From: Candidatus Dojkabacteria bacterium
Lineage (GTDB): Bacteria; Patescibacteriota; Dojkabacteria; JAHIVN01
Direction: 5' to 3'
DNA length: 64,000 nt
Assembly (NCBI GenBank): GCA_016932045.1
Contig: JAFGDO010000023.1
Span: 42,337 to 106,336 of the forward strand
In this document: one piece after another, positions 29,768-51,738 of the stretch
Layout: every line of letters begins with the position of its first letter
Position numbering within the stretch: position 1 is the first letter of the stretch
Notes under the pieces: model-generated
Told to the model about the DNA's origin: nothing
Database searches by the model: none
The model's input: the letters and a program-made list of their open reading frames with translations, nothing else
Made by a program: the position numbers and the translations under genes

Positions 29768-30433
29768 ATGAAGAAAGTTGGGTTGTGTCTAATTCTATGC
29801 ATTATTGCTATTGTCGCAGCTATATTTGTTCCCTGGGAAAATGTTGGGAACATCAAAGATCGTCTTTTGGGAACAAGTCGAAGTGTTGCTTCCTTAAAAG
29901 TTTATTCTTTAGGAGGTAATATGAAAGTAATACTTGATGGAGAAGAAAAAGGTACTGTAAGAAGTGAGGATCCTTACTTAGAGATATTTCCAGTTGAGGT
30001 CGGTAATCACACTGTTGAGCTTGAACGCGAGTCTGAGGCTGGGGGATTTTACGTTGATTTTAAGCGCGAAATACGATTTGAGAAAGGTTTTGATACTGTG
30101 ATTAGTTGGGAGATTGGTCCAACCGAAGATTCTTCTTCTGGATGGATTTTATATGCTCAGAAGACAACAGGAGAGGATGGTAAAATACTCGTCAACCTAA
30201 CATGTGATCCTGGAAATTGTGAAGTACAAATAGATGATCAAGAAAAACGCCAGGCTCCATTATCAGATCAAGAATTATCAATAGATAGCCAGCACACGAT
30301 CAAGGCTAGTAGATATGGGTATCAGGATCTGGAATTCCAGGTTCTCCCTGAGGAGGATTCGGCAAGAGCGCAGCTTGCCGGTTATGTTTTATTCCTAGAA
30401 GTGAATCTATACAAGATACCTGTGTACAATTAA
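29768..30433 (+). CDS. membrane-anchored / secreted protein with two PEGA-like domains
   Basis: N-terminal signal/TM helix; two about 60-aa beta-rich segments matching the PEGA pattern (... DG.EKG ... GNHTVELER ... GY). Confidence 0.55.
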   Translation: MKKVGLCLILCIIAIVAAIFVPWENVGNIKDRLLGTSRSVASLKVYSLGGNMKVILDGEEKGTVRSEDPYLEIFPVEVGNHTVELERESEAGGFYVDFKREIRFEKGFDTVISWEIGPTEDSSSGWILYAQKTTGEDGKILVNLTCDPGNCEVQIDDQEKRQAPLSDQELSIDSQHTIKASRYGYQDLEFQVLPEEDSARAQLAGYVLFLEVNLYKIPVYN

Positions 30434-30472
30434 CCGATTTGATAATTCAAAAAGGTTTTTTAGTTTAACTGA

Positions 30473-33400
30473 TTGCGTTTGATACTAATGCCTATTTTAG
30501 AGAAACTTACAAAGCATAAAAATGCTCCTGTCACGTTGATTTTTAAGGGGGCAAACGTTCTAGGTATTGAGGTTGCGAAGCTCCTTATAGAACAAGGAGC
30601 TTTCGTTGTGCTTATTGATGAATATACGCAGCAGAAGAAGAACATGGCTAGTAGTGTATTAAATGAAGAATTATTTAGCTTTGTTGATATTTCTGGTATC
30701 AGTTCACTTGTCGAAACAGTTGAACATGTCGATTATATATTTTTCCTGAATCATGAAAATTATGACTCGAAAGAGAATATATCAACCTCGGAATTTTTGG
30801 ATAAATCGAATACGCTTGACAGATTGCTTCAGTTGGCCACGGAAAAGAAGAGTAAGTTTCTGTTAACTTCGTCAATAAAACTGCATCAAATAATTCAAGG
30901 TAAAAAAGATGTTGTCTCAGATTTTGATTTAGATGATGACAGCTTAAGCTATACAAATCTTGAAGTTCAAAGATACGCAGAAAACCTGACATGGGAGTAT
31001 TATAAAAGAGGTGGTCTTAATGCCCGAATTGTAAGAATAGGAGAAATTCTTGGGGAGGGTATAGATTTTAATAAGGATGCCTTGGTTGTGAGATATATAA
31101 AGGACGCAATTTCAGGGCAAAAATTGTCAGTAGAGGGAGACGGTCTTGAGAATTTGTATTTTGTGCATGTTTTAGATGCAGCATATGGGCTGATAAAAGC
31201 ACAGTTTACCGAAAAAACATCTGGGCAGGTTTATTCCCTTGTGATTCCTCGTGATATCACTATCTTGAATCTTGCCTATAAAATACTTGATCTCGAACCT
31301 AGGGCAGGTGGGATAGATTTCATAGACCAGAAAGAGAAGGATGAGTTACATGTGTATAAACCGGCAAAGAACTTGAAAAGTATTGGCTGGAAACCAAAGG
31401 TTTCTTTTGAAAGAGCTTTAGCATCGACTATTGATTATGCTTACAAAGTATTAGGGAAAAAGAAGGCTCCGGTTCAAGAGACTCAGGCTCGTGTTCAGCC
31501 GCCAGTTCCCCCTAAACAGGATATAAAAAAGGATGAGGAGGGGAAAGAAAAGAAGAAAAGAAAATCACTTAAAGACTTTTTCGTTAATTTCTTTTTTGAA
31601 GTCAAGGAAGAGAAAAAAGCTCGTTCAGTTCTAGATAGTGTCCAATATAAACCAACACAAAAGCCTCAAACAGAGAAACCAGAAAAAGGTAAAATAGCAG
31701 AAAGGGTATCTCTTAGTCAAAAGAAAGAGATAAGAAAAGCGGAACCAAAAAGCAATAAGTTGAAATCTTTTGCACTTAAATTCACCGGATTGTTTAGTAA
31801 TCTTAGGAACACGGTTAGGACTTTTACACTTGCTCAGTTCTTTGGATATTTTACTGCTGCGATTATAGTACTCCTATTATATTTCGCATTTTTTGTTCCT
31901 GTCTCAAAAATAGTTTATAAGGGATCAGTGGCCTTTCTATATACAAACTCTGCAGCTAAAGCCATGGGAAATTGGCAGTTTTCAAAGGCAAGTAGTGATT
32001 TGGAATCTGCAAACCTTGCCTTGACAGAGGTAAACTCTAATCTTGATAAGTTATCATTTCTTGCAAGTATAAAACAATTTGATAGTTTAGGAAGACTTCA
32101 AAACAAAGTGTCTGAATCCTCAAGGGTACTGACTGCTGCTCAAATGCTTACAGAGTCAGCTGGACCTTTTGAGAGCTATCTAAATGAGTATCAGTCAAAT
32201 GTGTTGCTCGACGGAAAGGAAGATTTGAAAGTACAACCTGGAAACATATATGAGTTGGACGGCCTTTTAGACGTTGATGTTGCAAGGTGGGGTCAAATGT
32301 TGGAAGGTGCCGATACTGTATTTGATGAGTCAGAATTTAATCTGACACTAATCGGGGGTCGCATAAAAGGATTTCAGGAGGCTTTGACCTCGATAAAGCA
32401 GACGAGTGATGTAACCCTTGATCTTGTAAGTGTTATGCCGACTTTACTTGGTGTAGAAGATGAACAAACATTCGCTGTTTTACTAGTGAATGAGGAAAAG
32501 ATGAACACAAGGGGTGGAGAGATTGAGGCTGTTTGTGTATTTTCATACTTTAAAGGGCAGCTTTCTAATACTCGCATTTATGGAAGTTCAGATATAAATC
32601 TTAAACTTACATCTCAACAAGAGAGATTTGTTAGAAATGATCTTAAAGCATTATATCCTGAGGATGGGTTAACTTTTAGAGAACTGACTATTATATTTGA
32701 TGATGGAACTTTCGAATCACTTATAAAGTCCTCAATCGAAACTATCTATGAGGAGAGTCCCGATCATATTGTTACTTTAAACTTTGAAGCCCTAGGAGAT
32801 CTTATATCACTTATAGGGGGTGTTGAACTTGAAGGTTTAGGCATCGTAAATTCTTCAAACTATGAGGAGAGTATTCAAAAGTCTGATATTTCATACAGAG
32901 AACTAATGGCGAAGATTTTTGAAAGAGTTTTTCAGTATAAAAAAGAAGATTTATTAGCTTTCGGTACGCTTATAGGGAACCATATAAAATCATCAAATAT
33001 GGTTCTTTATTCTCAGAGTTCAATACTAGATAAGTTTCTAGCAGATAAAGGAATTACAAAAACTCCCCCAATGGACTCATATGATTGGTTTAGTGTTCAT
33101 GCTGTAACTGATTCACAGAATATGCCGAGTATCAAAGTCGAGACAAGAATTGAATTAAAAGATGCGGATAGTGAAGCAGAGCACAAGCTAAGTTTTGAGA
33201 AAAATATAGAAGGAGACTTTCTTGGAACTGTCATCCTTGAATTTGGACCTGATTTTGACATCTCTGAAATTACTACATCATCAGATAAGGTTCAAGTGTT
33301 ACAAGAATATAGAAATAAAGTATTCCTACAGCTAAACCTTGTAAAAGATGATAAAGAAAATGCAGTTGTCAAGGGGAAAAGTACTGGAGTTGTAATCCAA

Positions 33401-33601
33401 AAAGAGAATGAGTATAATTACTTCTTGCAACTAGAGAAACCGGCAGGTTTTTTTTACTATTATGATATTCTGCTAGACTACGGGAAGGATTATCAATTGA
33501 TGTCTGTATCTCCGGAAAGTGTAACTGTTGATTCAGCGGTGAAGATACTAGGCAGTATAAATGAAGATATGCTATGGAGACTAAATCTTTCTCAACCATA
33601 G
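30473..33601 (+). CDS. 1042-aa fusion protein: cytoplasmic NAD-dependent epimerase/dehydratase-like Rossmann domain, single TM helix, large extracytoplasmic domain (possibly LCP/LytR-CpsA-Psr-like)
   Basis: Residues 1-330 have an SDR/epimerase-like fold (GANVLG glycine-rich loop; YTNLE in place of YxxxK); Lys-rich linker; TM helix FTLAQFFGYFTAAIIVLLLYFAFFV; C-terminal about 600 aa with an LCP-like block FAVLLVNEEKMNTRGGEIEAVCVFSY. Confidence 0.7.
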   Translation: MRLILMPILEKLTKHKNAPVTLIFKGANVLGIEVAKLLIEQGAFVVLIDEYTQQKKNMASSVLNEELFSFVDISGISSLVETVEHVDYIFFLNHENYDSKENISTSEFLDKSNTLDRLLQLATEKKSKFLLTSSIKLHQIIQGKKDVVSDFDLDDDSLSYTNLEVQRYAENLTWEYYKRGGLNARIVRIGEILGEGIDFNKDALVVRYIKDAISGQKLSVEGDGLENLYFVHVLDAAYGLIKAQFTEKTSGQVYSLVIPRDITILNLAYKILDLEPRAGGIDFIDQKEKDELHVYKPAKNLKSIGWKPKVSFERALASTIDYAYKVLGKKKAPVQETQARVQPPVPPKQDIKKDEEGKEKKKRKSLKDFFVNFFFEVKEEKKARSVLDSVQYKPTQKPQTEKPEKGKIAERVSLSQKKEIRKAEPKSNKLKSFALKFTGLFSNLRNTVRTFTLAQFFGYFTAAIIVLLLYFAFFVPVSKIVYKGSVAFLYTNSAAKAMGNWQFSKASSDLESANLALTEVNSNLDKLSFLASIKQFDSLGRLQNKVSESSRVLTAAQMLTESAGPFESYLNEYQSNVLLDGKEDLKVQPGNIYELDGLLDVDVARWGQMLEGADTVFDESEFNLTLIGGRIKGFQEALTSIKQTSDVTLDLVSVMPTLLGVEDEQTFAVLLVNEEKMNTRGGEIEAVCVFSYFKGQLSNTRIYGSSDINLKLTSQQERFVRNDLKALYPEDGLTFRELTIIFDDGTFESLIKSSIETIYEESPDHIVTLNFEALGDLISLIGGVELEGLGIVNSSNYEESIQKSDISYRELMAKIFERVFQYKKEDLLAFGTLIGNHIKSSNMVLYSQSSILDKFLADKGITKTPPMDSYDWFSVHAVTDSQNMPSIKVETRIELKDADSEAEHKLSFEKNIEGDFLGTVILEFGPDFDISEITTSSDKVQVLQEYRNKVFLQLNLVKDDKENAVVKGKSTGVVIQKENEYNYFLQLEKPAGFFYYYDILLDYGKDYQLMSVSPESVTVDSAVKILGSINEDMLWRLNLSQP

Positions 33602-34121: not shown

Positions 34122-34320
34122 TTCCCTCCTTTTATAAAACCTCTACATTCCTAGCAGCCTAAAGTTTTATTCTTTATACAACACTTTTTTATCTTGCAAA
34201 AGGATGGCCGTTCCCTTCTCTATATGCTTTCCCGCATTGCATTTTTACTAGTAAGCTTAATACTTTATAGCATTGTTCATAATTTTTAAACTTTCTGAAA
34301 AAGAAGATTTTAGATAAAAA

Positions 34321-34452
34321 TTATGCATTTCTATCAAATTCGCTACCGCGACACTCTTTTCTAGGATCTCTAGTCATATCAGCTGTTTGTCCTGAATAAT
34401 TGGGACAATCTTTGCAGCACAAGCCGCAGTATGCAGTCATATTTTTACTCAT
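34321..34452 (-). CDS. small (43 aa) Cys-rich hypothetical ORF in a 620-nt intergenic region
   Basis: Hand translation MSKNMTAYCGLCCKDCPNYSGQTADMTRDPRKECRGSEFDRNA; five Cys in 35 residues; no obvious SD. Confidence 0.3.
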   Translation of the reverse strand: MSKNMTAYCGLCCKDCPNYSGQTADMTRDPRKECRGSEFDRNA

Positions 34453-34742
34453 TTTATAACAATTTCAAAATTAATTATTATTATTAACACTATTATGTTT
34501 TTAGTTTAAAAAAGTTGTACCTTTTGTACTTTAATAATAGTTTTTCTTGCTATAGATAATAGTATGGTATACTTCCAAAAAATGATTATCCATGTTAAAC
34601 TATAAAAATAATAGCAAGATATAATAAACAGTGCTAATTTATAATTTGTGAAATTGAATAGTTAAAGCAAGGATTTTTTAGCTTACAAGGTATTCAATTT
34701 CTTCACAACTTCATTAAGTAATAATGCTAAAAGGCATGGCGC

Positions 34743-36473
34743 TTGCGAAGCAAGCTTAATTTGAAGTCCTTATGTAAAATGAAGCAACACGCAGTTCCAG
34801 AAAATATAATGGACGTGGAGTTTAAGCTATTTGGTAGTCTAACGGCTAAACAGTTTGGTTATATTATTGGTGGTGGGTGTATAGCTTTGCTTATGTACTA
34901 TACATTTAAGACTCTTAACTCTACCCTATTAGGATGGATCTTTGCTTTTTTGTGTGTAATCCTGGGGTTATCTCTTGCACTTATAAGAGTAAATGATCAG
35001 CCGTTTGAAGTTTGGCTGGGCAATTTTCTCTCAGCTATGTTTTCGTCTCAAAAAAGAGTATGGAAAAAGGGGAAAAAAACACCAGAAGTTCTTACTCAAC
35101 AAGGAGTTGAACAGAAGAAAGAGATTGTTCGTGCACAACAGTCAGCTCCTCTGCAGGTAGCTACTCAAGCACAGCAGGAAAAGAAGATTCTTCCCCCAAA
35201 ACCTTCACTACAGCCGGGTCCTAGTATACCTGAGCATCCTTTTAAAGATATTCAGACAGAAAATCAACAAAAGCAGGTTATACAAGCTCCAGGAAAAGTG
35301 CAGGCAGGTGGTGTTGCGCCACGCGGGCCGGTTGTACAGTCGCAACTTGCTGGAACAGCCGTTCAGGGCGATACATACTATATACCAGGGAGTGCCCAAA
35401 AATATATAAAAATGTCTACTAATCAGTCTCCTAACCGTCCCTTGACAGTATCAACTCAATCGGGGACTTTAGATCAGAGAATAAAATCAGATATGATACA
35501 ACCACAGAAAGTTCAAACACAGAAGTCCGATCAAGTCCAACAAACACCTTCTACTCTTTTAAATGAAGGTAATGGGGTGAGTGCAACTACAAGTTCTCCT
35601 CCACCGCATGACGAACCAGCAGAAAACGTTGGAAATAAGCAGGAACCTAAAAGCGACACGCAAGCTGTATCAGCCGCTCCTGTTGTAAGTCAGCAATCAG
35701 GACAGGTTGGTACTGGAAATGTCTCGGATCAGACACAACAAGCTTCCATCGAGGGGGCAGCGCCAGTACTGCAACAACCAGTACAAGCTCCACAGGTTGC
35801 TCAAACAAATGAGGGGAAAACGTATACGAACAAAGGGTTACAATATGGTGATCTGATTCCCGAAAAAGGTGAATCTACAACAGATCATGCAAATGATGAT
35901 AGTTCAGGTGCTATATCTTCTGATGATCAGCTTGCAGAGGAGAATAAAGCTTTAAGGCAAAAGGTGGCTGAATATTCTGAGGAAAAAGCAAAGTTAGAGG
36001 AAGCACTTACTCAGACTAAGAGGATGCACGATGAGTTACAGAGTCAAAATCTAGGTTTAAGTGAGAAGCTAGGAGGTCTTCAAAGGGAGCTAGAGGCACT
36101 TAAGGTTAAGGAAGAGGAGCCTAAGCCGGCAGCACCGACGAAGCAAATTCCGAAAGAACAAGAGGATAGTGGACTTATGTCGCCAGGTGTTTATAGCGGC
36201 CCGTCACTTAGTAAAAAACCTAATGTCATTAGCGGAATAGTAAAGACTAAAGATGGAAAGCTATTGCCGGGTGTTATAGTGATAGTGAAAAATGATAAGG
36301 GTCGACCTGTACGCGCTATGAAGACAAATAGTCTTGGTCAATTTGTGACGACGACAGCACTAGATAATGGAGTTTATCTTTTAGAACTTGCAAGGGATAG
36401 CTACTCTTTTGCGCGTTATGAGATACGTCTGACAGGTGACTTGTTGCCGACATATGAAATTGAGTCGTCTTGA
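34743..36473 (+). CDS. membrane protein: N-terminal 2-TM VirB3/PrgI-like region (inferred), long Gln/Pro-rich low-complexity linker, coiled coil, C-terminal CarboxypepD_reg-like beta-sandwich domain
   Basis: FGSLTAKQFGYIIGGGCIALLMYY ... LGWIFAFLCVILGLSLALI hydrophobic pair; QxQ/PxP-rich middle; LEELKxK coiled coil; C-terminus ISGIVKTKDGKLLPGVIVIVKNDKGRPV ... GVYLLELARDSY. Confidence 0.6.
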   Translation: MRSKLNLKSLCKMKQHAVPENIMDVEFKLFGSLTAKQFGYIIGGGCIALLMYYTFKTLNSTLLGWIFAFLCVILGLSLALIRVNDQPFEVWLGNFLSAMFSSQKRVWKKGKKTPEVLTQQGVEQKKEIVRAQQSAPLQVATQAQQEKKILPPKPSLQPGPSIPEHPFKDIQTENQQKQVIQAPGKVQAGGVAPRGPVVQSQLAGTAVQGDTYYIPGSAQKYIKMSTNQSPNRPLTVSTQSGTLDQRIKSDMIQPQKVQTQKSDQVQQTPSTLLNEGNGVSATTSSPPPHDEPAENVGNKQEPKSDTQAVSAAPVVSQQSGQVGTGNVSDQTQQASIEGAAPVLQQPVQAPQVAQTNEGKTYTNKGLQYGDLIPEKGESTTDHANDDSSGAISSDDQLAEENKALRQKVAEYSEEKAKLEEALTQTKRMHDELQSQNLGLSEKLGGLQRELEALKVKEEEPKPAAPTKQIPKEQEDSGLMSPGVYSGPSLSKKPNVISGIVKTKDGKLLPGVIVIVKNDKGRPVRAMKTNSLGQFVTTTALDNGVYLLELARDSYSFARYEIRLTGDLLPTYEIESS

Positions 36474-36517
36474 TGTAATTTTCTTTAATTTTATTATTTT
36501 AATCTTTTATTTATATT

Positions 36518-37204
36518 ATGGCTCTTTTGCCGAAGGGGATACCCTCGACACAACAACATCTTGATATTGCTGAGATAAAGAATGATCTTGTGGTCCTTAA
36601 AAATGGTGTTGTAGCACTTGTGTTAGAAACCACATCCCTGAACTTTGATTTGTTATCAGAACGGGAGCAGGACACAAAGATTCTTGCTTTTGCTGGGCTT
36701 CTGAATTCACTTTCATTTCATGTTCAGATCGTAATCCGCACTCATAGGACAGATTTAAGTGACTATGTTGAGCTTCTAGAAAACCAAAAAAATAGACAAA
36801 TTTCTAATGGACTTCGCAATCAAATGGGAATTTATATTGAATTCATAAAAAACCTGACAGTTACAAATGAAGTTCTTGAGAAGCGATTCTTTATAATTAT
36901 CCCTAGTAGTAGTGGAATTTCACTAAAGCCGGGAATATTTAAAAAGTTATTTGGGAGCAAGGAAGATGTGGTCAATGTTGATGAAGCTATAGATAGAGCG
37001 ACAACAAAGTTGTATCCAAGAAGGGATCACATCATCAAACAGTTGAAAAGGATGAGCTTGTTTGCACGACAACTTTCCTCTTCGGAGCTAGTAAAGTTGT
37101 ATTATGGTGTATATAACCCCGAGCGAGGTGGGATCGAAAAACTACAGCTAACTAGAACTGATGTTGATGCTCCTGTTGTAGGAGCAAAGACACAGGAGAG
37201 TTAG
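36518..37204 (+). CDS. protein resembling the N-terminal (CagE/TrbE/VirB4 N-domain) region of VirB4 ATPases, encoded separately from the ATPase
   Basis: Pattern DIAEIKNDLVVLKNGVVALVLETTSLNFDLLSEREQDTKILAFAGLLNSLSFHVQIVIRTHR mirrors the conserved VirB4/TrbE N-terminal block; 228 aa, no Walker motifs. Confidence 0.5.
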   Translation: MALLPKGIPSTQQHLDIAEIKNDLVVLKNGVVALVLETTSLNFDLLSEREQDTKILAFAGLLNSLSFHVQIVIRTHRTDLSDYVELLENQKNRQISNGLRNQMGIYIEFIKNLTVTNEVLEKRFFIIIPSSSGISLKPGIFKKLFGSKEDVVNVDEAIDRATTKLYPRRDHIIKQLKRMSLFARQLSSSELVKLYYGVYNPERGGIEKLQLTRTDVDAPVVGAKTQES

Positions 37205-37239
37205 TGTGTTAGAAATTATTAAATGAAACGCACAGAAAG

Positions 37240-37773
37240 ATGGAGGATACAAAGTTACATTATATTGTGGTTACGGGAATTATTATTAAGGATGAAAAAT
37301 TCCTTATTGCTCGAAGAAGTTTAAAAGAAGCAGCTTTTCCAGGCTTGTGGACAGTACCTGGGGGGAAATTACGTACCGATGATTATACTACTTCAAAAAA
37401 GGATACGTCAGATAGCTGGTACAATGTTCTTGAAAAATTATTACAAAGAGAAATAAAGGAGGAAGTGGGGGTAAATGTAAAAGATATAAGATACCTTTTG
37501 AGCTTGACGTATATTCGCTCAGATGGGAAGCCGACCTTGATATTGAGCTTTTATTGTTATTATGATTCGGGGAGTATTCAGTTATCGAAGGAATTAACGG
37601 AATATAAGTGGGTAGATAGAAATGGTCTGGAGAACTATGCGTTAGTGCCGGGGCTTAGAGAAGAGATAGAGATGGTAGATGATATACTCAAAGGAGGCGG
37701 AGTTGAAAGCTGGAGCGGACAATATGATAGTTGCGATGATGAGAGTGTTCGAGATGGGGAATCAAAGAAATAA
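37240..37773 (+). CDS. NUDIX hydrolase
   Basis: Nudix box GGKL ... REIKEEVGV (with insertion); 177 aa. Confidence 0.7.
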   Translation: MEDTKLHYIVVTGIIIKDEKFLIARRSLKEAAFPGLWTVPGGKLRTDDYTTSKKDTSDSWYNVLEKLLQREIKEEVGVNVKDIRYLLSLTYIRSDGKPTLILSFYCYYDSGSIQLSKELTEYKWVDRNGLENYALVPGLREEIEMVDDILKGGGVESWSGQYDSCDDESVRDGESKK

Positions 37774-37855
37774 ATGGGCAATCAAGATATTTTTATAATC
37801 TATTTGTAATCAATTAAATAGAGTTTAAGTTACTTTTTTATTTCAATGTTTATTT

Positions 37856-39883
37856 ATGGCCAATTTACTTTCATTTCTGAAGAAAAAAGATAAAAAGGAT
37901 GTTGCTAGTGCTCAAACCCAAACTCAAGCAGGCGGTCAGCTTGAAGGACAGATAACTTCATCAATTCCTGGTCAAGTTATGCCAACAAGTACTGTTGGCA
38001 CGAGCAGGTATTTAAAGACAAGTACAGAACAAAAAGAGCTTACTAAAGCTTATCAACAGAAAGGACAATTCTTAGCAAGATCCGGTGTAGATATAAAAGA
38101 TGAGGATGAGGCAGTGAATAAATTTGTCGGAGGGATGCTGGATGTGAAGGATATTATCGCGCCTCCAGCTATAGAGGTAGATTTTAATCATATTCTTGTA
38201 GGAACGAAGTATTTTCGAACCCTTTTTTCTTCGGGTTATCCTAAATTTGTGGGTGCAAACTGGTTGTCACCTTTGATAAATTTCGAATTCCCTGTTGATA
38301 TAAGCACCTTTTATTATCCTGTTGATTCCAGGCTTGTAATGCAGAGGTTAAAAAGAAAAATTGGAGAGATGGAAGCGACTATAAATATAGATCTGGAAGC
38401 AGGTAAAGTGGTTGATCCAAGGGTTAAGGTTGCGCTTGCAGATGCTAAAGAACTTCAGGAGTCTCTGGCGAAAGGTACTGAAAAATTTTTTCATTTCGCA
38501 CTATATGTAACTATTAACGCATCCTCTCTTGCCGAATTGGAGAAGACCTATAAGAATCTTGAACAGTCTCTGGGAGCAATAGGAGTTGTTATTAAACCAG
38601 CAACTTTGCAGCAAGAGCAAGGCTATCAAAGTGTAGTGCCGGTGGGACTGGATAAACTGTATTATACGAGGAATATGGATACTACCTCACTAGCCACTAC
38701 ATTCCCGTTTGTCAGTTCGAATCTCACTATGAACAGGGGAGTTTTGTATGGTGTAAACAAGCATAATAAGAGTCTGGTGATCTTTGATAGATTTGAGCTT
38801 GAAAATGCCAATGCTGTGATTTTTGCGACATCAGGAGCTGGAAAGAGTTACCTTGTCAAGCTTGAGGCTTTAAGAGGTCTTATGTTTGGCATAGAAAGTA
38901 TTATTATCGATCCTGAAAAAGAGTATCAAAAGTTATGTAGAACAATAGGAGGCGAATACATATCCTTTGCACAAGATGGTGATAAGAAGCTAAACCCTTT
39001 CGAACTTTCAGGTATTCAAGAGGAGGGTGAAGATGAATTGAGAATGAAAATACAATCTCTTCACGGCCTTTTAAAGATAATGCTTGGAGGACAGGTAACT
39101 CCACAGGAGAGTGCTGTCCTAGATAGGGCTCTAATTCTGACCTATAAAGAGAAAGGGATAAGTCCTGATATCGTAACCCATAAAAACCAGCCTCCTTTGA
39201 TGGAAGATTTATACAAAGTGCTCCAAGCGATGGCTGAGCCGGAAGCCCATTCTATAGCTATACGGTTGGAAAAGTATATAAGAGGAAGTGCAGCAGGTAT
39301 TTTTGATCGACAAAGTACAGTTGACATTCGAAATACTTTTACTGTTTTTAGCATAAGAGAATTAAGTGATGACCTTCGCCCTATAGCTATGTATATGATG
39401 CTTGATTTTATTTGGAACAAAGTAAAAACAGATAGACGCAAAAGGCTTCTCATAATTGACGAAGCTTGGTGGATGATGCAGTTTGAAGACGCAGCCAAAT
39501 TTATACATTCTATTGCAAAAAGAGCAAGAAAGTATTGGTTAGGTCTGACAACCATTACTCAAGATGTTGAAGATTTTCTGGAAACTGATTATGGTAAGGC
39601 AATCATTACAAACTCGGCTATTCAAATTCTTCTAAAACAGAGCCCTGCTGCTGTTGATAGAATCCAAAAGGTATTTTATTTATCTGACGGAGAAAAGAAC
39701 TTTTTACTTTCTTCGGGAATTGGAGAAGGTATATTTTTTGCAGGACCAAGTCACGTTGCTATTCAGGTAATTGCTTCGGAAAATGAGCATCAGTTAATTA
39801 CTGCTCATCCTGAAGAACTGGCAAAACAAGCTCGTGAAGAGCAAGAGAGGGAAAGACAATTAAGAGAAAGTCAGGGCGGGTGA
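37856..39883 (+). CDS. VirB4/TrbE/TraC-family type IV secretion / conjugation ATPase
   Basis: Walker A VIFATSGAGKSY, Walker B LLIIDEAWWMM, LTTITQ motif, TraC-like N-region; 675 aa. Confidence 0.8.
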   Translation: MANLLSFLKKKDKKDVASAQTQTQAGGQLEGQITSSIPGQVMPTSTVGTSRYLKTSTEQKELTKAYQQKGQFLARSGVDIKDEDEAVNKFVGGMLDVKDIIAPPAIEVDFNHILVGTKYFRTLFSSGYPKFVGANWLSPLINFEFPVDISTFYYPVDSRLVMQRLKRKIGEMEATINIDLEAGKVVDPRVKVALADAKELQESLAKGTEKFFHFALYVTINASSLAELEKTYKNLEQSLGAIGVVIKPATLQQEQGYQSVVPVGLDKLYYTRNMDTTSLATTFPFVSSNLTMNRGVLYGVNKHNKSLVIFDRFELENANAVIFATSGAGKSYLVKLEALRGLMFGIESIIIDPEKEYQKLCRTIGGEYISFAQDGDKKLNPFELSGIQEEGEDELRMKIQSLHGLLKIMLGGQVTPQESAVLDRALILTYKEKGISPDIVTHKNQPPLMEDLYKVLQAMAEPEAHSIAIRLEKYIRGSAAGIFDRQSTVDIRNTFTVFSIRELSDDLRPIAMYMMLDFIWNKVKTDRRKRLLIIDEAWWMMQFEDAAKFIHSIAKRARKYWLGLTTITQDVEDFLETDYGKAIITNSAIQILLKQSPAAVDRIQKVFYLSDGEKNFLLSSGIGEGIFFAGPSHVAIQVIASENEHQLITAHPEELAKQAREEQERERQLRESQGG

Positions 39884-39934
39884 CGAACTTATCATTAAGG
39901 CCCACGTAATTCTTAACTAAATAAGATTAATCTA

Positions 39935-40498
39935 ATGGGAGAGGTAGCAAGTTTGGGTACTGTAAATACAATAAATATTCCTTCCTTTGTCCTAGTGGTT
40001 GGTGGAGTATTGTTATTCGGGATAATTGTTTTTTTAGTAAGCATTATTGTATACCTTTCCAAAAAGATTAGATTTTTGACTAAGATGCGCTTTGGTTTCG
40101 GGGGCAGGCCTATCTTTTCTATTCTAGCAATTCTTGCGATTGCACTTGCGATACCCCTAACATACTATGCATCAAGCAGATCTATAGAGATAGTAAATTT
40201 AGCTCGTGCCGAAAGGGATGTGACGATTGAGGTCCAAAAGATAGAAGTATATGAGGGGTTGTATGATGTTTCTTTTATGGCTATTCCAACTGTTGATGGT
40301 GAAGCTTGGGGAGAGAAATCTTATGAAATCACATGGATGGTCGAGGGTCCATTGACATTTGAAAAGAAGGAAAGTGAGAGAAGTATAAAAGCACCTAGTT
40401 ATTTTCGGAAGGAACTGCCTAGTGGTACGTATGAGTTAAAAGTAGTAGTTGAAAGCGAGGGATTCAAAGTGGTAAAAACTCAGTACCTTGATTTTTAG
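39935..40498 (+). CDS. small membrane protein (2 TM plus about 110-aa extracytoplasmic domain), unknown function
   Basis: two hydrophobic helices at the N-terminus; part of the VirB4 island. Confidence 0.5.
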   Translation: MGEVASLGTVNTINIPSFVLVVGGVLLFGIIVFLVSIIVYLSKKIRFLTKMRFGFGGRPIFSILAILAIALAIPLTYYASSRSIEIVNLARAERDVTIEVQKIEVYEGLYDVSFMAIPTVDGEAWGEKSYEITWMVEGPLTFEKKESERSIKAPSYFRKELPSGTYELKVVVESEGFKVVKTQYLDF

Positions 40499-40514
40499 TT
40501 AATTACTATCATTT

Positions 40515-41936
40515 TTGTTAATTATTTCCGTGGATAAAAAGTATAGAAGAAGCTTACTCAAACCTAGATTTCTAACTGTTTTTTTAGCAGTTGTAGTACT
40601 CTTTAACTTCTTCAGCACTAAGATACTTCCTAAAGAAGTATTCTTAGCATATGCTGCAGATATAAATATCCAAGAGCTCGTTGATCTTGCAAATTCAGAG
40701 AGGCAGGCTCGGGGGGTTCAACTTTTATCTGTTGATTCCCGGTTAGTGGAGGCAGCAAAGGCAAAGGGCGAGGATATGTTGGCTAAAGATTACTGGTCAC
40801 ACTATGGTCCGAATGGAGAGTCGCCTTGGGATTTTATCTTATCGAGTGGGTATGAGTATATGTACGCTGGTGAGAATCTTGCCAAGGATTTTTCATCGAC
40901 TGCTCCTATACATAGTGCGTGGATGGCAAGTCAATCACATAGAAGTAATATACTCAACGTAAATTTTAAAAATGTCGGTATTGCTGCGGTTACTGGAGAA
41001 TTTCAAGGCGAAGAAACGACAATTGTAGTTCAAATGTTTGGTGCCGGAGAAGTAGATTATAATGAGTCTAGTGTAAACGATAGTGATAGTCTTCCTGTAA
41101 CAGGGTCAGAAGGCTCTCTTGAATCTCCTGTAATTATATACCCTCATGATGGAGATATCTTTGATAATGGAGCGTTTGATATAAGGGGAAATTCAAATGA
41201 GGGAACGAAGATAGAGATATTTGACAACCATAACATATCTGGAGAGGTAGCTCCTTTCGATTCTGCATTTGTTTATACAAATGCGGCCGGTTATAGTGAT
41301 GGATTGCACATTATATATGCGAAGGCTATAAACGAAGCCTTTGAGAGTAGTGGTATATCAAATATTATCAATGTAAATGTTGACACTATCGACCCGAATA
41401 TTGTTCGAGAATCGGCTAAATTTGAATATGTCGAGGTAGGATACGACTTTAGAAACTTTGTCTTTTCTATTGAGATTGAAGATAACCCTATTTATGTAAG
41501 TGGCGAGTACAAAGGGGAAGACGTGGATTGTAATTATATAAATGAGAGATGGCAGTGTGTTGTCAATGAAAAAATGGAAGTATTTGAAGAATTAAAGATA
41601 TACGCAAAAGATGCAGCGGGGAATGAGACTATGGAACTCTTCAAAACCGAAGAATTGAATAGTTTAGCAGAGTTTCATCTTGGAGATATGAATCTCGGAT
41701 CCGAGATTCATACATGGTTTATAGAAAATTTTATATCGCGAATCTTTACTAGAAGTCTGAGAGGTAAGGTAAATTTCCTTTTTGCAGTAATAATAGTCAT
41801 TATACTTGGTGCTCAATATTTAGTGCTAGCCAAAACAGGCTTGACAAAGGAATACTCATTTTCACTCCTGCACCTGCCTGTTTTTGCCATTCTGTTATTT
41901 GTTGGGCTTCTTGGAAGCGGGGGAGAAATACTGTAA
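40515..41936 (+). CDS. CAP/SCP (PR-1-like) domain protein with extracellular middle region and C-terminal TM helices (TTG/GTG start)
   Basis: CAP motifs ANSERQARGV ... DMLAKDYWSHYGPNG ... YEYMYAGENLAK ... HRSNILNVNFKNVGIAAV; N-terminal signal/TM and C-terminal hydrophobic helices. Confidence 0.7.
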   Translation: MLIISVDKKYRRSLLKPRFLTVFLAVVVLFNFFSTKILPKEVFLAYAADINIQELVDLANSERQARGVQLLSVDSRLVEAAKAKGEDMLAKDYWSHYGPNGESPWDFILSSGYEYMYAGENLAKDFSSTAPIHSAWMASQSHRSNILNVNFKNVGIAAVTGEFQGEETTIVVQMFGAGEVDYNESSVNDSDSLPVTGSEGSLESPVIIYPHDGDIFDNGAFDIRGNSNEGTKIEIFDNHNISGEVAPFDSAFVYTNAAGYSDGLHIIYAKAINEAFESSGISNIINVNVDTIDPNIVRESAKFEYVEVGYDFRNFVFSIEIEDNPIYVSGEYKGEDVDCNYINERWQCVVNEKMEVFEELKIYAKDAAGNETMELFKTEELNSLAEFHLGDMNLGSEIHTWFIENFISRIFTRSLRGKVNFLFAVIIVIILGAQYLVLAKTGLTKEYSFSLLHLPVFAILLFVGLLGSGGEIL

Positions 41937-41997
41937 TCAAATTAAAAGCTTACTTGATAGGTTTTTACAAAAAGGGTTTAATAATTAAGGATATTTT

Positions 41998-42825
41998 ATG
42001 ACTCAGTTCATAAGTTTTCTAGGAAAAAATAAACGTAGCATTTTTTACGCATTTTCAACTGGATTTGGCCTTACCTTTGCATTGGAACTTCTGAAAGATT
42101 ATGGAGGAGATGAGTTTTGGATGGGAGTTTCACTTACCAGTGTCGTGTTAATTTTGGAGATTTACTTAAATTGGAGATTTGCGACAAGAATTTTGCGTCA
42201 AATCGACTTGCCTAGTATTAATACTTATAATTTATGGGGTCACTTTCTCAATCATATTACCCTTCCCCTCTTATTATTTTTTTCATTAGCTGGTTTTATA
42301 TACTTTAATAGCGATGATTTGGTTAGACTTATAGCTATCATAGCTTTAGTGTTTATCAATATTATCCTTTTCATAAATATTCGCTCATACTACCAGGATG
42401 AGTTCAAGATTGATGTCAGTACACGATATATTTACGATGTTATAAAACTTATTATCTCCTTTTTCGGGATAAATTTGATTCTTCATGTGAAGGTCTTACT
42501 GCAATTGGACTTATGGCTTATGGCATGCTGTGTATGTTTTTTGCTATTAATACTCGGGGGACTACTGATCTATAGAAAGGCTCAGGTAAACATTTATACA
42601 ATTGCATATGTGATTATTTCCTCATTCTTAATAGCTGTTGTATTTATGCTTTTAAATGTTTTCGGTTTTATACTCTTGGGAATAAATGTTATTTCTTTTT
42701 TGCTTTTTTATTTCTCTCTTTCTATACTTCATCATAGGATTGAAAGGTCATTAACTCTCAATGTATTTCTTGAGTACGTTATGTTTTTTATTATTGCATT
42801 ACTTTTATTTGCAGGTCTTAGCTAG
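41998..42825 (+). CDS. polytopic membrane protein (about 7 TM); VirB6-like role possible by context only
   Basis: 275 aa, highly hydrophobic, multiple predicted helices. Confidence 0.5.
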   Translation: MTQFISFLGKNKRSIFYAFSTGFGLTFALELLKDYGGDEFWMGVSLTSVVLILEIYLNWRFATRILRQIDLPSINTYNLWGHFLNHITLPLLLFFSLAGFIYFNSDDLVRLIAIIALVFINIILFINIRSYYQDEFKIDVSTRYIYDVIKLIISFFGINLILHVKVLLQLDLWLMACCVCFLLLILGGLLIYRKAQVNIYTIAYVIISSFLIAVVFMLLNVFGFILLGINVISFLLFYFSLSILHHRIERSLTLNVFLEYVMFFIIALLLFAGLS

Positions 42826-49662: not shown

Positions 49663-51738
49663 TTGAAAATATTTCTCTTAATTTGTATTATAGTAAGTAG
49701 TTATTTATTCTTTTTTGCGGAGTTTTTGAAGAAAAGAAACATTTTAGACAAAATATATAAGTACTATTCTTTAGTGATTTTGCTGGTGACCTCCCTATCT
49801 GTCCTTTGTGTAAGCCTCCTTGGTTACGCGATAATAATGTATCCTGTATCAATCAGCAAAGTGGAAGAGATAAAGAGGCATGTTATAGAGTTGCCGTTAA
49901 CAGGTGAGGGAGATCTATACCGTGCTTTTGTTACCTCACAGGAATATACAGCTAATTTAGGGGGTTTGTCAGGGGCTGATCAGAAGTGTAATGATCGGGC
50001 ACATAGTGAGAATTTATGCGGAGATTATCGTGCGTGGCTGAGTACAAGTAATGCTGATGCCAGAAATAGAGTAAGAGATACAGCATACTACACTGTGGGT
50101 GGCAGGGGCTATGAGTACAAGATTTGTGATGGCATAGCAGATCTTACAGATGGTACACTCGATAACACTCTAGCTATTGATGAAAGTGGGGAGCCTAAGC
50201 CGGTGTCCGGTCCTGGTCCATATGAGTGGTTATTTACTTGGACTGGTACAGTCCCAGATGGGACTAAGTTTGGAACTTCACCGGTTGATTTCTGTAATGA
50301 TTGGAGTGGCATAGTAGACAATGCTCTGGTAGGGTACGCTCTTTCACAGTCCGTTGAATGGACAAATGATGAGGTTCATATTTGTGAAAGAGAACATGCT
50401 CTTTACTGCTTTGAGTATAGGAAAGATGGTGATTGTGATGGCTATTTCAGGGAGGATAATGACTGCAATGATACAAATTCAACGATATATCCAGGTGCTC
50501 CAGAGCTATGTGACGGCTTTGATAATAATTGCGACGGGGCTATCCCTTCAAATGAAAATGATGGTGATGGTGATGGGTATAGGATATGTGCAGGCGATTG
50601 TAACGATAATGATTTATACATCCATCCTGGAGCTTCGGAGAGATGTAATGGTGTAGATGACAACTGTGATGGAAATATTCCTGCGAGTGAAGCAGATAAT
50701 GATGGGGATGCATGTAGGGTATGTGATGGTGATTGTGATGATAATGATGTAACTGTAAGTACTACGGCATCTGAGGTTTGTGATAATAAGGATAATGATT
50801 GTGATGGAGTAAAGGATGACAATCTGATAAGGAACTGTGGGAGCGAAACTGGTATATGTACAATAGGAAGTGAAAAGTGTGTAAACGGTGTTTGGGGCAA
50901 TTGTGATGGCGTTCAGCCTCAGCAGGAGATTTGTGATGGGCTTGATAATGATTGTGATGGTAGAACTGATGAAGGATGTACTTGTACTCCGGGAAATGCT
51001 CAGTCATGTGGAAGTAGTACAGGGGCATGTAAAAGCGGTACTCAGGTCTGTGAAAGCGGAGGGGTATGGGGTAAATGTACGGGTGCCCAAGGACCAAGTA
51101 CAGAAATTTGCGATGGTATTGATAATGATTGTGATGGAAGTACAGATGAGAATTTAAGTAGGACATGCGGGGCGAATATTGGTCTATGTAAACAGGGCGT
51201 TCAGTACTGTGAAAATGGCAGCTGGGGCGAGTGTAAAGGAGGTGTAGAACCAGAGGATGAAAAGTGTGATAATGAAGATAATGACTGTGATGGTACTGTC
51301 GATGAGGGTTGTGAATGTCCGGCAAATGAACAGAGAAGCTGCGGCGTTGATATGGGAGAGTGTGGCAAGGGGTTGCAGAAGTGCGTTGAAGGTATCTGGA
51401 GCAAATGTATTGGAGCACAAGAGCCAACTGATGAGGTTTGTGATGATCTTGATAATGATTGTGATGGTGAAGTTGACGAAGGATATGTTTGTGAAGAGGA
51501 AGAGGCTCAACAAGAAGTATCAGAAGGTATTCAGGATCAAGAAGGTGAAAGTAAGGAGGAACAGGGTGTCGGCTCTGAGTTAATAATCGTTGCACTCATT
51601 GTTGTACTAATGGTTCCCCTTGCTATATTTGTTTTTTATCAGTATATGAAGGCAAGAAGAAAAGGTGCTGTAAGCAAACCGAGGAGAAAGGTTAAGGAAC
51701 CCAGGATCCCAGAATCTTTAAGAAGTCCTCTTGGATAA
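49663..51738 (+). CDS. surface protein: N-terminal TM/signal, DUF1554-like domain, about 10 tandem MopE-type Cys-rich repeats (C-D-G-x-D-N-D-C-D-G), acidic stretch, C-terminal TM anchor
   Basis: FVTSQEYTANLGGLSGADQKCN ... YRAWLSTS ... DLTDGTL matches the DUF1554 pattern; repeats CDGFDNNCDG / CDGLDNDCDGRTDEGC and similar; C-terminal helix IIVALIVVLMVPLAIFVFYQY followed by a basic tail. Confidence 0.7.
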   Translation: MKIFLLICIIVSSYLFFFAEFLKKRNILDKIYKYYSLVILLVTSLSVLCVSLLGYAIIMYPVSISKVEEIKRHVIELPLTGEGDLYRAFVTSQEYTANLGGLSGADQKCNDRAHSENLCGDYRAWLSTSNADARNRVRDTAYYTVGGRGYEYKICDGIADLTDGTLDNTLAIDESGEPKPVSGPGPYEWLFTWTGTVPDGTKFGTSPVDFCNDWSGIVDNALVGYALSQSVEWTNDEVHICEREHALYCFEYRKDGDCDGYFREDNDCNDTNSTIYPGAPELCDGFDNNCDGAIPSNENDGDGDGYRICAGDCNDNDLYIHPGASERCNGVDDNCDGNIPASEADNDGDACRVCDGDCDDNDVTVSTTASEVCDNKDNDCDGVKDDNLIRNCGSETGICTIGSEKCVNGVWGNCDGVQPQQEICDGLDNDCDGRTDEGCTCTPGNAQSCGSSTGACKSGTQVCESGGVWGKCTGAQGPSTEICDGIDNDCDGSTDENLSRTCGANIGLCKQGVQYCENGSWGECKGGVEPEDEKCDNEDNDCDGTVDEGCECPANEQRSCGVDMGECGKGLQKCVEGIWSKCIGAQEPTDEVCDDLDNDCDGEVDEGYVCEEEEAQQEVSEGIQDQEGESKEEQGVGSELIIVALIVVLMVPLAIFVFYQYMKARRKGAVSKPRRKVKEPRIPESLRSPLG
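50440..51490 (+). repeat. degenerate tandem DNA repeats encoding the Cys-rich motif array
   Basis: Recurrent TGTGATGG ... GATAATGATTGTGATGG units; the repeats leave several alternative frames open on both strands as artefacts. Confidence 0.5.

Follow-up and report, generated by a model that had tools for sequence, protein, structure and literature searches.

Type IV secretion systems (T4SSs) in the candidate phyla radiation (CPR) have been described in two papers. Quiñonero-Coronel et al. (2025; PMC12102498) reported a monophyletic Patescibacteria clade of VirB4, made up of 2,425 proteins and nested in MPF_FATA. In that survey, TrsD was the commonest accessory protein and lay beside virB4 in 1,664 cases, and VirB3/PrgI homologues lay beside virB4 in 880 cases. 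VirB6 was scarce and VirB8 nearly undetectable, both being undetectably divergent in several CPR classes, and VirB2-like pilin arrays were frequent, relaxases almost absent, and the loci chromosomal. According to the same paper, TrsD is restricted to the pGO1 subclass. Wang et al. (2023; PMC10633639) found that a T4SS cluster of S. epibionticum (SEML1_0006-0019), which has no recognizable relaxase or coupling protein, is essential for epibiotic growth, and a 2025 review repeats this essentiality.

Here we compare these systems with a locus at positions 34743-42825 of a 64-kb stretch of chromosome from a Candidatus Dojkabacteria bacterium. This whole stretch of 64,000 nucleotides is called the window below, and searches also took in its flanks, 10 kb upstream and ~5 kb downstream (~80 kb in total). 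A first-pass annotation, made from the letters alone, had described the locus as an "island" of eight consecutive genes built around a VirB4 ATPase. We found seven open reading frames (ORFs), g1 to g7, all on the + strand, and that annotation itself lists seven. In order, they encode a VirB3/PrgI-like protein (g1), a TrsD-like protein (g2), a NUDIX hydrolase (g3), a VirB4-family ATPase (g4), a protein with two transmembrane (TM) helices (g5), a CAP-domain protein (g6), and a polytopic membrane protein (g7). The reading that we favor, with a probability of about 75%, is that the locus combines a conserved T4SS-like core (g1-g2-g4) with an inserted NUDIX gene (g3) and a separate downstream envelope pair (g6-g7). 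The homologies, synteny, conservation levels, and fold classes given below are direct observations.

A conserved PrgI-TrsD-VirB4 core

The features of the core are as follows.

34779 to 36473, + strand: g1, VirB3/PrgI-like membrane hairpin (Pfam PrgI, E = 8e-11 over aa 18-106, above the gathering score)
34794 to 35060, + strand: PrgI region of g1 (Pfam match)
36518 to 37204, + strand: g2, TrsD-like, a stand-alone VirB4 N-terminal domain (NCBIfam matches)
37856 to 39883, + strand: g4, VirB4-family ATPase without the first ~180 residues of full-length VirB4 (NCBIfam and PDB matches)
38825 to 38848, + strand: Walker A of g4, ATSGAGKS, aa 324-331 (motif read)
39446 to 39463, + strand: Walker B of g4, LLIIDE, aa 531-536 (motif read)
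39545 to 39562, + strand: LTTITQ motif of g4, aa 564-569 (motif read)

The mechanical ORF of g1 begins at a TTG codon (34743). Because homologues align only from residue 13, the start is probably the ATG at 34779. The g2 protein has no Pfam match. It matches the N-terminal part of the NCBIfam model VirB4_plasma (model positions 109-241, E = 1e-9) and the TrsD/TraD model (E = 1.7e-6), in both cases below the curated full-length cutoff, and its orthologues carry Pfam PF26593, TraC-like. A comparison of the g2 sequence with the PDB returned nothing significant. The g4 protein matches NCBIfam conju_CD1110 (NF045971) above the cutoff (E = 2e-112, model positions 180-734) and the VirB4 C-terminal domain in PDB entry 4ag5 (E = 5e-48). 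Because g2 and g4 cover complementary stretches of full-length VirB4 models (positions 109-241 versus 292-893), g2 appears to be the VirB4 N-domain made as a separate chain. In two related loci, TrsD and VirB4 form a single continuous ORF (L044, 834 aa; L068, 814 aa). Thus, what the first-pass annotation had called a VirB3-like protein, a stand-alone VirB4 N-domain protein, and a VirB4 ATPase with Walker A, Walker B, and LTTITQ motifs is borne out by these matches.

A scan of one genome per species found at least 580 relatives of g4 in genome contigs, and we read the gene neighborhoods of the best 80. These share 51-72% identity with g4, and the named records among them are all from CPR lineages (Dojkabacteria/WS6, Microgenomates lineages, WWE3, and Pacebacteria). 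Directly upstream of VirB4, a g1 homologue is present in 73 of the 80 loci and a g2 homologue in 75. The spacing between TrsD and VirB4, which was read in 65 loci, ranges from -32 to +169 nt; the median is ~3 nt, and in many loci the two genes overlap by 4 nt. Elsewhere than in our window, an insertion between the two genes was seen in L072 only. The inserted gene there (L072:4406-7699) encodes a protein of 1,097 aa that lacks Pfam matches and is predicted to have 13 TM helices, a candidate for an extended VirB6-like protein.

The core is also well conserved in close relatives. Identity to the orthologues in L081 is 81% for VirB4 and 81% for TrsD, compared with 63% for GreA, 69% for SecA, and 60% for HPF, and in the two Dojkabacteria lineages seen, the PrgI-TrsD-VirB4 trio is at one and the same chromosomal site. 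Because VirB4 and TrsD are closer to their L081 counterparts than the neighboring housekeeping proteins are, the g1-g2-g4 core is more constrained than its neighbors and not a remnant. Decay would nevertheless account for part of the picture. If the locus were the remnant of an integrated conjugative element, with a lone and functionless VirB4 relic, it would fit that no relaxase, type IV coupling protein (T4CP), VirB6, hydrolase, or pilin gene was found in the ~80 kb and that a foreign gene, the NUDIX, splits trsD from virB4. We regard such a history as highly improbable, because all ORFs are intact with their catalytic motifs present, VirB4 and TrsD are better conserved between genomes than GreA, SecA, and HPF, and the trio keeps to one chromosomal site in the two Dojkabacteria lineages seen and recurs next to VirB4 in most of the 80 CPR loci. 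Neither an integrase nor a repeat boundary nor a shift in composition is present, and homologous genes are essential in S. epibionticum (PMC10633639).

The C-terminal extension of the PrgI homologue

Beyond its membrane hairpin, g1 contains three further features.

35070 to 35894, + strand: Q/P-rich linker of g1 (16% Q, 10% P)
35895 to 36122, + strand: coiled coil of g1
36228 to 36434, + strand: C-terminal CarboxypepD_reg-like beta domain of g1 (Pfam E = 1.3e-6, 29 bits, below the 32.3-bit cutoff)

These domain calls agree with those of the first-pass annotation, although the CarboxypepD_reg match is subthreshold. That annotation had also counted the CarboxypepD_reg domain among the noncanonical partners of the machine. 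In phmmer comparisons of g1 with the PrgI-like ORFs of related loci, alignments covered the N-terminal PrgI region in 70 of 75 cases and the last ~90 residues in 72 of 75. The linker between the N- and C-terminal modules varies in length, so that whole proteins have 241 to 622 aa, and the precomputed Pfam annotation of the Dojkabacteria g1 orthologues is PrgI plus CarboxypepD_reg. Because it is kept in 72 of 75 homologues, the CarboxypepD_reg-like domain is the normal C terminus of CPR PrgI homologues rather than a local peculiarity. Comparison of this domain with PDB sequences gave insignificant matches only, and the main text of PMC12102498 does not mention a PrgI C-terminal beta domain.

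Seven basic residues (in KRVWKKGKK plus the R before it) come after the second TM helix of g1. Because these residues follow the second helix, the positive-inside rule suggests that the long C-terminal extension is probably cytoplasmic.

A NUDIX gene between trsD and virB4

37240 to 37773, + strand: g3, MutT-like NUDIX hydrolase (Pfam NUDIX, E = 1.7e-11)

The first-pass call of a NUDIX hydrolase is correct, and among NCBIfam models g3 scores best with generic MutT-like ones, never reaching the cutoff. It retains REIKEEVGV, the core of the Nudix box. Between GGK and the helix there is an insertion of ~17-20 residues, and the Pfam match is split into two stretches.

None of the 80 VirB4-anchored CPR loci has a NUDIX gene between TrsD and VirB4. 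The close Dojkabacteria contigs that were recovered (L081-L084 and L088-L091, several of which are duplicate records of one contig) all lack it there too, and in them TrsD abuts VirB4. The GC content at third codon positions (GC3) of g3 is that of its neighbors, that is, its composition is native. We therefore judge g3 to be a housekeeping-gene insertion private to this genome and not part of the apparatus.

The CAP-domain protein and the polytopic protein

40515 to 41936, + strand: g6, membrane-anchored CAP/YkwD-domain protein (Pfam CAP, E = 9.5e-16; NCBIfam YkwD, E = 8e-32)
40683 to 41039, + strand: CAP domain of g6 (Pfam)
41998 to 42825, + strand: g7, polytopic membrane protein with many invariant polar residues and no family match

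As the first-pass annotation had proposed, g6 is a CAP-domain protein with C-terminal TM helices; the layout is one N-terminal and two C-terminal helices. A middle region of ~200 residues (aa ~190-400) is inserted relative to the short forms described below, and there is a subthreshold match to NCBIfam DalA, a divisome-associated lipoprotein. The literature on bacterial CAP/YkwD or DalA function yielded nothing usable, with no report of wall hydrolase activity for bacterial CAP domains. The g7 protein had been called a 7-TM protein, a count that we did not recover: its AlphaFold2 model has 9-10 helices, of which ~8-9 were counted as membrane spanning, and a crude hydropathy scan gives 6. Its homologues fall into 20 clusters only, and both clusters that carry a source name are from Candidatus Dojkabacteria. 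Neither Pfam nor NCBIfam gives a VirB6, TrbL, or PrgH match for g7, and the model resembles no VirB6 structure. An hhalign comparison with the polytopic protein that follows VirB4 in L007 gave a probability of 0.3%, a negative result that is weak for such divergent membrane proteins.

Neither the CAP protein nor the polytopic protein lies beside VirB4 in any of the 80 VirB4-anchored loci, and both are absent from that place in the sister Dojkabacteria lineage too. A metagenome scan with a g6 profile instead found short CAP membrane proteins of ~295 aa with 39-50% identity in the CAP part and the same TM layout; the three that were read (L095, L102, and L109) have a similar G-x-I-L C terminus. 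In all 11 readable loci, the gene after the short CAP gene encodes a protein that is 84-113 aa long, mostly ~92 aa, and for which two or three TM helices are predicted. The motif of this partner, WG-x-x-HH...LEY, matches the C terminus of g7 (hhalign probability 92.8%, E = 3.9e-7), and we refer to it as the HH-EY protein. In the clearest loci, the neighbors of the short pair are FtsX, a coiled-coil M23 or C39-like peptidase, a lamin-tail-domain protein, VanZ, and RmlA, and on contigs long enough to show it, VirB4 is lacking within 8 kb. We judge g6-g7 to be a separate envelope gene pair, not demonstrated parts of a T4SS.

The cluster around the short pair has its own order in L093-L109 (for example, L102:4195-9868): FtsX, coiled-coil M23/C39 peptidase, lamin-tail-domain protein, VanZ, CAP, the ~92-aa HH-EY protein, and RmlA. 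This order was confirmed with Pfam in L102 and partly in L095.

The two-TM protein with an Ig-like ectodomain

39935 to 40498, + strand: g5, two-TM protein (two TM helices, Ig/FnIII-like C-terminal beta sandwich)

The first-pass annotation was right to call g5 a two-TM protein. A conserved, positively charged loop, RFGFGG[KR]P, joins the helices, and the ectodomain is Ig/FnIII-like instead of having the NTF2 fold of VirB8. The family is made up of 189 representative clusters of very uniform length in a full-library profile search, and among all loci fetched, its hidden Markov model (HMM) matches in Dojkabacteria-type loci only. A g5 gene follows VirB4 in 2 of the 80 VirB4-anchored loci, and iterative HMM searches of all ORFs of those loci with g5, g6, and g7 found nothing outside Dojkabacteria. 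In L086, L087, and L114, g5 comes directly after VirB4, the stop codon of the one overlapping the start codon of the other; L001 likewise has g5 after VirB4. L001, L086, and L087 belong to the sister, OLB20-like lineage, in which the operon consists of PrgI, TrsD, VirB4, and g5 and the next gene is on the opposite strand.

Two other loci place g5 with the CAP gene. The order in L092 is an Ogt-like gene, a g5-like gene, CAP, the polytopic gene, and HPF; the contig extends ~520 bp upstream of g5, and VirB4 is not in that part. In L110, a g5-like gene is followed by CAP. Together with the gap sizes, which are 16 nt between g5 and g6 versus 51 nt between VirB4 and g5, these loci favor a three-gene envelope module (Ig-like, CAP, and polytopic) unrelated to the T4SS, so that the T4SS-like unit would be g1, g2, and g4 only. 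We consider this quite unlikely, since g5 comes straight after VirB4 in L114 and the OLB20-like lineage, where stop and start codons overlap and a CAP pair is lacking, and no g5-family gene adjoins the short-form CAP pairs near ftsX. The assignment of g5 is ambiguous, in that it may be a Dojkabacteria-specific accessory either of the core or of the CAP pair.

Secretion and conjugation components sought in and around the window

The first-pass annotation had reported no VirD4, relaxase, VirB1, or VirB11 in the window. This was confirmed, and its suggestion to look for VirD4 and relaxase genes beyond the window yielded none: VirD4, VirB1, and VirB11 were not found in the window, the 10 kb upstream, or the ~5 kb downstream, and relaxase, integrase, and T4CP families have no match in window ORFs of at least 450 aa, nor in the flanks. 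No lysozyme, SLT, CHAP, NlpC/P60, or M23 domain that could represent a VirB1-like hydrolase was detected in g1-g7. A hydropathy scan of all ORFs of at least 50 aa found no credible small two-helix ORF for a VirB2-like pilin in the window. Features of an integrative and conjugative element (ICE) or a plasmid were also not found, with no relaxase, T4CP, integration or replication module, tRNA gene, or compositional island. The earlier view that this is not a standard conjugation module but resembles the T4SS-related apparatus of Saccharibacteria is right for g1, g2, and g4.

The gene after VirB4 differs in Microgenomates-type loci. In L045 (11706-14703), L014 (11875-15045), L047, and L057, VirB4 is followed by a membrane protein of 500-1,280 aa that combines a long N-terminal region with a Gly/Ala-rich multi-TM segment. 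In L045 and L014, this protein ends in a CHAP or M23 hydrolase domain, confirmed with Pfam. In L045, the hydrolase gene is followed by a gene for a one-TM Big_5 Ig-like protein (Pfam confirmed). The post-VirB4 hydrolase of these loci is the Gram-positive VirB1-like arrangement, and the Dojkabacteria locus is without such a local hydrolase.

This comparison bears on whether all seven genes could form one minimal envelope-spanning T4SS-like apparatus, as the first-pass annotation had proposed. In such a model, the CAP protein would stand in for VirB1, the polytopic protein for VirB6, and the two-TM protein for VirB8, and the NUDIX would be an added enzyme. Because the Microgenomates slot after VirB4 holds a wall hydrolase (CHAP/M23) and, in L045, an Ig-like protein, an extracytoplasmic enzyme and an Ig-like protein might be expected there. 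The genes share one strand, their gaps are 16-82 nt, and no terminator inside the run is convincing; g5-g6-g7 come after VirB4 in every sub-clade relative, and VirB6 and VirB8 are reported to be undetectably divergent in several CPR classes (PMC12102498). We nevertheless think a single apparatus unlikely. No relative has the NUDIX, none of the 80 loci has CAP or the polytopic protein next to VirB4, and the sister Dojkabacteria operon ends after g5. The CAP and HH-EY pair keeps company with FtsX, a peptidase, and RmlA, with no VirB4 in up to 8 kb where the contig allows; in L092, g5, CAP, and the polytopic gene follow an Ogt-like gene and not VirB4; and the g7 model is unlike VirB6 structures and the g5 ectodomain is Ig-like, not NTF2-like. 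The first-pass annotation had looked to synteny with VirB4 across CPR genomes and to VirB3 or VirB6 signal in the membrane proteins. Such synteny holds for PrgI and TrsD and is found in 0 of 80 loci for the NUDIX, CAP, and polytopic genes, and the VirB3 signal is present in the PrgI match of g1, with no VirB6 signal for g7. Its list of noncanonical partners is reduced in the same way: the CarboxypepD_reg domain is a clade-wide PrgI feature, the NUDIX a private insertion, and the CAP and polytopic proteins a separate pair, which leaves g5, whose linkage is split.

Chromosomal setting

The locus lies among housekeeping genes, with a ribosomal operon and GreA on one side and HPF and SecA on the other. 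The window as a whole contains EF-G/EF-Tu, the S10-spc-alpha ribosomal operon, GreA, HPF, two GT4 glycosyltransferases, LigT, SecA, and GltX. Seven same-strand genes occupy 34743-42825, and the gap between g6 and g7 is 61 nt. GC content and GC3 of g1-g7 are those of the surrounding genes, and the whole region is syntenic in related genomes. In the sub-clade, the order is Epimerase, GreA, PrgI, TrsD, VirB4, g5, CAP, g7, HPF, GT4, GT4, LigT, and SecA, with LigT absent from L084 within this otherwise kept order. The term "island" used in the first-pass annotation does not suit a region whose composition equals that of its surroundings and that is syntenic chromosome in relatives. A horizontal-transfer island was likewise ruled out by the composition, which matches the neighbors, and by the synteny in relatives.

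No tRNA genes or Rfam families were found in the 64-kb window. Promoter-like and terminator-like sites occur in it at chance frequency only, and a terminator scan within g1-g7 gave nothing convincing. Proteins identical to g5 and g7 have been deposited as hypothetical proteins of Candidatus Dojkabacteria bacterium.

Several other observations concern the surroundings. Almost all genes in the window (1-64000) are on the + strand, and GC skew is positive all along it with a monotonically rising cumulative skew, which fits the leading strand of one replichore. The gap between GreA and g1 (34122-34778) is AT-rich and unusually long (~620-650 nt); the same gap in relatives is 14-455 nt. It contains a Cys-rich minus-strand ORF of 43 aa (34321-34452; MSKNMTAYCGLCCKDCPNY...) with a zinc-ribbon-like motif, possibly a small gene or what remains of one. 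At 34741-34755, shortly 5' of the likely g1 start, there is a perfect hairpin, GCTTGCGAAGCAAGC. Farther upstream (29768-33601) are a PEGA-domain protein and then a 1,042-aa fusion of an N-terminal NAD-epimerase with DUF4012 and a faint LytR_cpsA_psr match. The epimerase fusion is directly upstream of GreA and the T4SS core in all Dojkabacteria-type loci whose upstream region was recovered, and the PEGA gene precedes it in L086 and L087. Downstream, at 49663-51738, is a 691-aa protein with five Cu-binding_MopE repeats, in the stretch of highest GC content in the window (0.416). Several long ORFs overlap there on both strands, as is typical of repetitive coding sequence. In the relative L084, the MopE-repeat region is fragmented, as is SecA.

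Interpretation and significance

For topology, stoichiometry, substrate, and what the PrgI extension does, we infer from R388, Gram-positive T4SSs, and the two CPR papers. We propose that g1-g2-g4 is the vertically inherited chromosomal core of a Patescibacteria-clade, MPF_FATA-related T4SS-like machine, with its genes in the trsC-trsD-trsE order of the pGO1 subclass. The PrgI/VirB3-like hairpin in the cytoplasmic membrane would dock the ATPase, and TrsD would contribute, as a chain of its own, the N-terminal domain of VirB4. Like its counterparts in other T4SSs, the N-terminally truncated VirB4 is presumably hexameric, and it would use ATP to provide energy for assembly, transport, or both. 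Such a machine may serve transfer across a single membrane for host interaction; because no relaxase or coupling protein is nearby, we infer this role in preference to conjugation. Candidate roles are the transfer of protein or another macromolecule or the biogenesis of a pilus, as has been proposed for Saccharibacteria. The missing channel, hydrolase, and pilin parts could be encoded elsewhere or be replaced by unrecognized proteins. In this genome alone, a MutT-like NUDIX gene would have landed between trsD and virB4, and the downstream CAP and polytopic pair would be a separate unit, which elsewhere adjoins cell division and cell wall genes.

Three points weigh against this reading. First, g5, g6, and g7 are tightly packed behind VirB4 and are kept there in all sub-clade relatives, so cotranscription and functional recruitment of g5-g7 are possible. 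Synteny within the sub-clade is uninformative on function and argues neither way, because unrelated housekeeping genes also keep their order there. Second, VirB6, a wall hydrolase, pilins, and a T4CP were not found in the window and its ~15 kb of flanks, and the machine may be incomplete or completed from elsewhere in the genome. Third, charge distribution is the only ground for placing the PrgI C-terminal domain in the cytoplasm.

The PrgI extension, with its Q/P linker, coiled coil, and beta sandwich, might speculatively act as an oligomerizing adaptor. If it is cytoplasmic, its coiled coil and transthyretin-like beta sandwich, a conserved module that VirB3/PrgI would have gained in the CPR loci sampled, could replace the missing coupling protein as an adaptor for substrates or partners, and the Dojkabacteria g5 protein, possibly with the CAP and polytopic pair, could supply the missing extracytoplasmic parts. 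We consider this combination unlikely. If g5, with or without the pair, did supply those parts, the T4SS architecture would be one not described before. In any case, the C-terminal domain that CPR PrgI proteins conserve is a target for structural studies.

The Patescibacterial T4SS-like machine is the first T4SS reported to be essential for the growth of its bearer. Its core is already published, and the picture given in PMC12102498 is unchanged by our results. Modestly new are the conservation of the PrgI C-terminal module in the sampled CPR loci, the Dojkabacteria-type g5 family, and the recurrent CAP and HH-EY pair. The locus adds a very pared-down example from Dojkabacteria, PrgI-TrsD-VirB4 plus one lineage-specific protein, that helps to define the minimal core. 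It is also a warning that tight same-strand packing in streamlined CPR genomes does not imply shared function, as the NUDIX gene and the CAP pair illustrate.

Comparison with known systems

Relative to the short CAP and HH-EY pairs, g6-g7 share the CAP part (39-50% identity), the TM layout, and the g7 C-terminal motif found in the partner protein. In contrast to the short pair, g6 has an extra middle of ~200 residues, g7 has ~6 more helices, and the two genes sit after VirB4 and g5 and before HPF.

The conjugation module of the pGO1/pSK41 type within MPF_FATA, from Gram-positive bacteria, has the gene order trsC-trsD-trsE. Our locus shares with this module a VirB3-like small membrane protein, a stand-alone TrsD, and a VirB4 ATPase. 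Unlike the module, it has no TrsK/VirD4, relaxase, oriT context, TrsG hydrolase, or surface adhesin and lies on no plasmid or ICE, and its PrgI homologue is ~5 times the size of the ~90-residue PrgI domain, adding a coiled coil and a beta sandwich.

The system that the locus most resembles is the Patescibacteria-clade T4SS. Both are chromosomal, lack a relaxase, have housekeeping surroundings, and carry TrsD and PrgI/VirB3 immediately upstream of VirB4, and the VirB4 described here is most similar to CPR homologues (51-72% identity), a similarity in sequence that would place it in that clade. The differences are that no VirB2-like array, VirB1-like hydrolase, or VirB6 is in or near the window; that the context is GreA/HPF/SecA and a ribosomal operon, not dnaA/dnaN; and that here a NUDIX gene splits trsD from virB4 and a member of the Dojkabacteria-type g5 family follows VirB4.

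For g4 itself, the best family and structure matches are the CD1110-family VirB4 of Clostridioides CTn2-type ICEs and the VirB4 of T. pseudethanolicus (4ag5). Compared with the CD1110 family, g4 begins at model position ~180, and the N-terminal segment that it lacks is encoded by g2.

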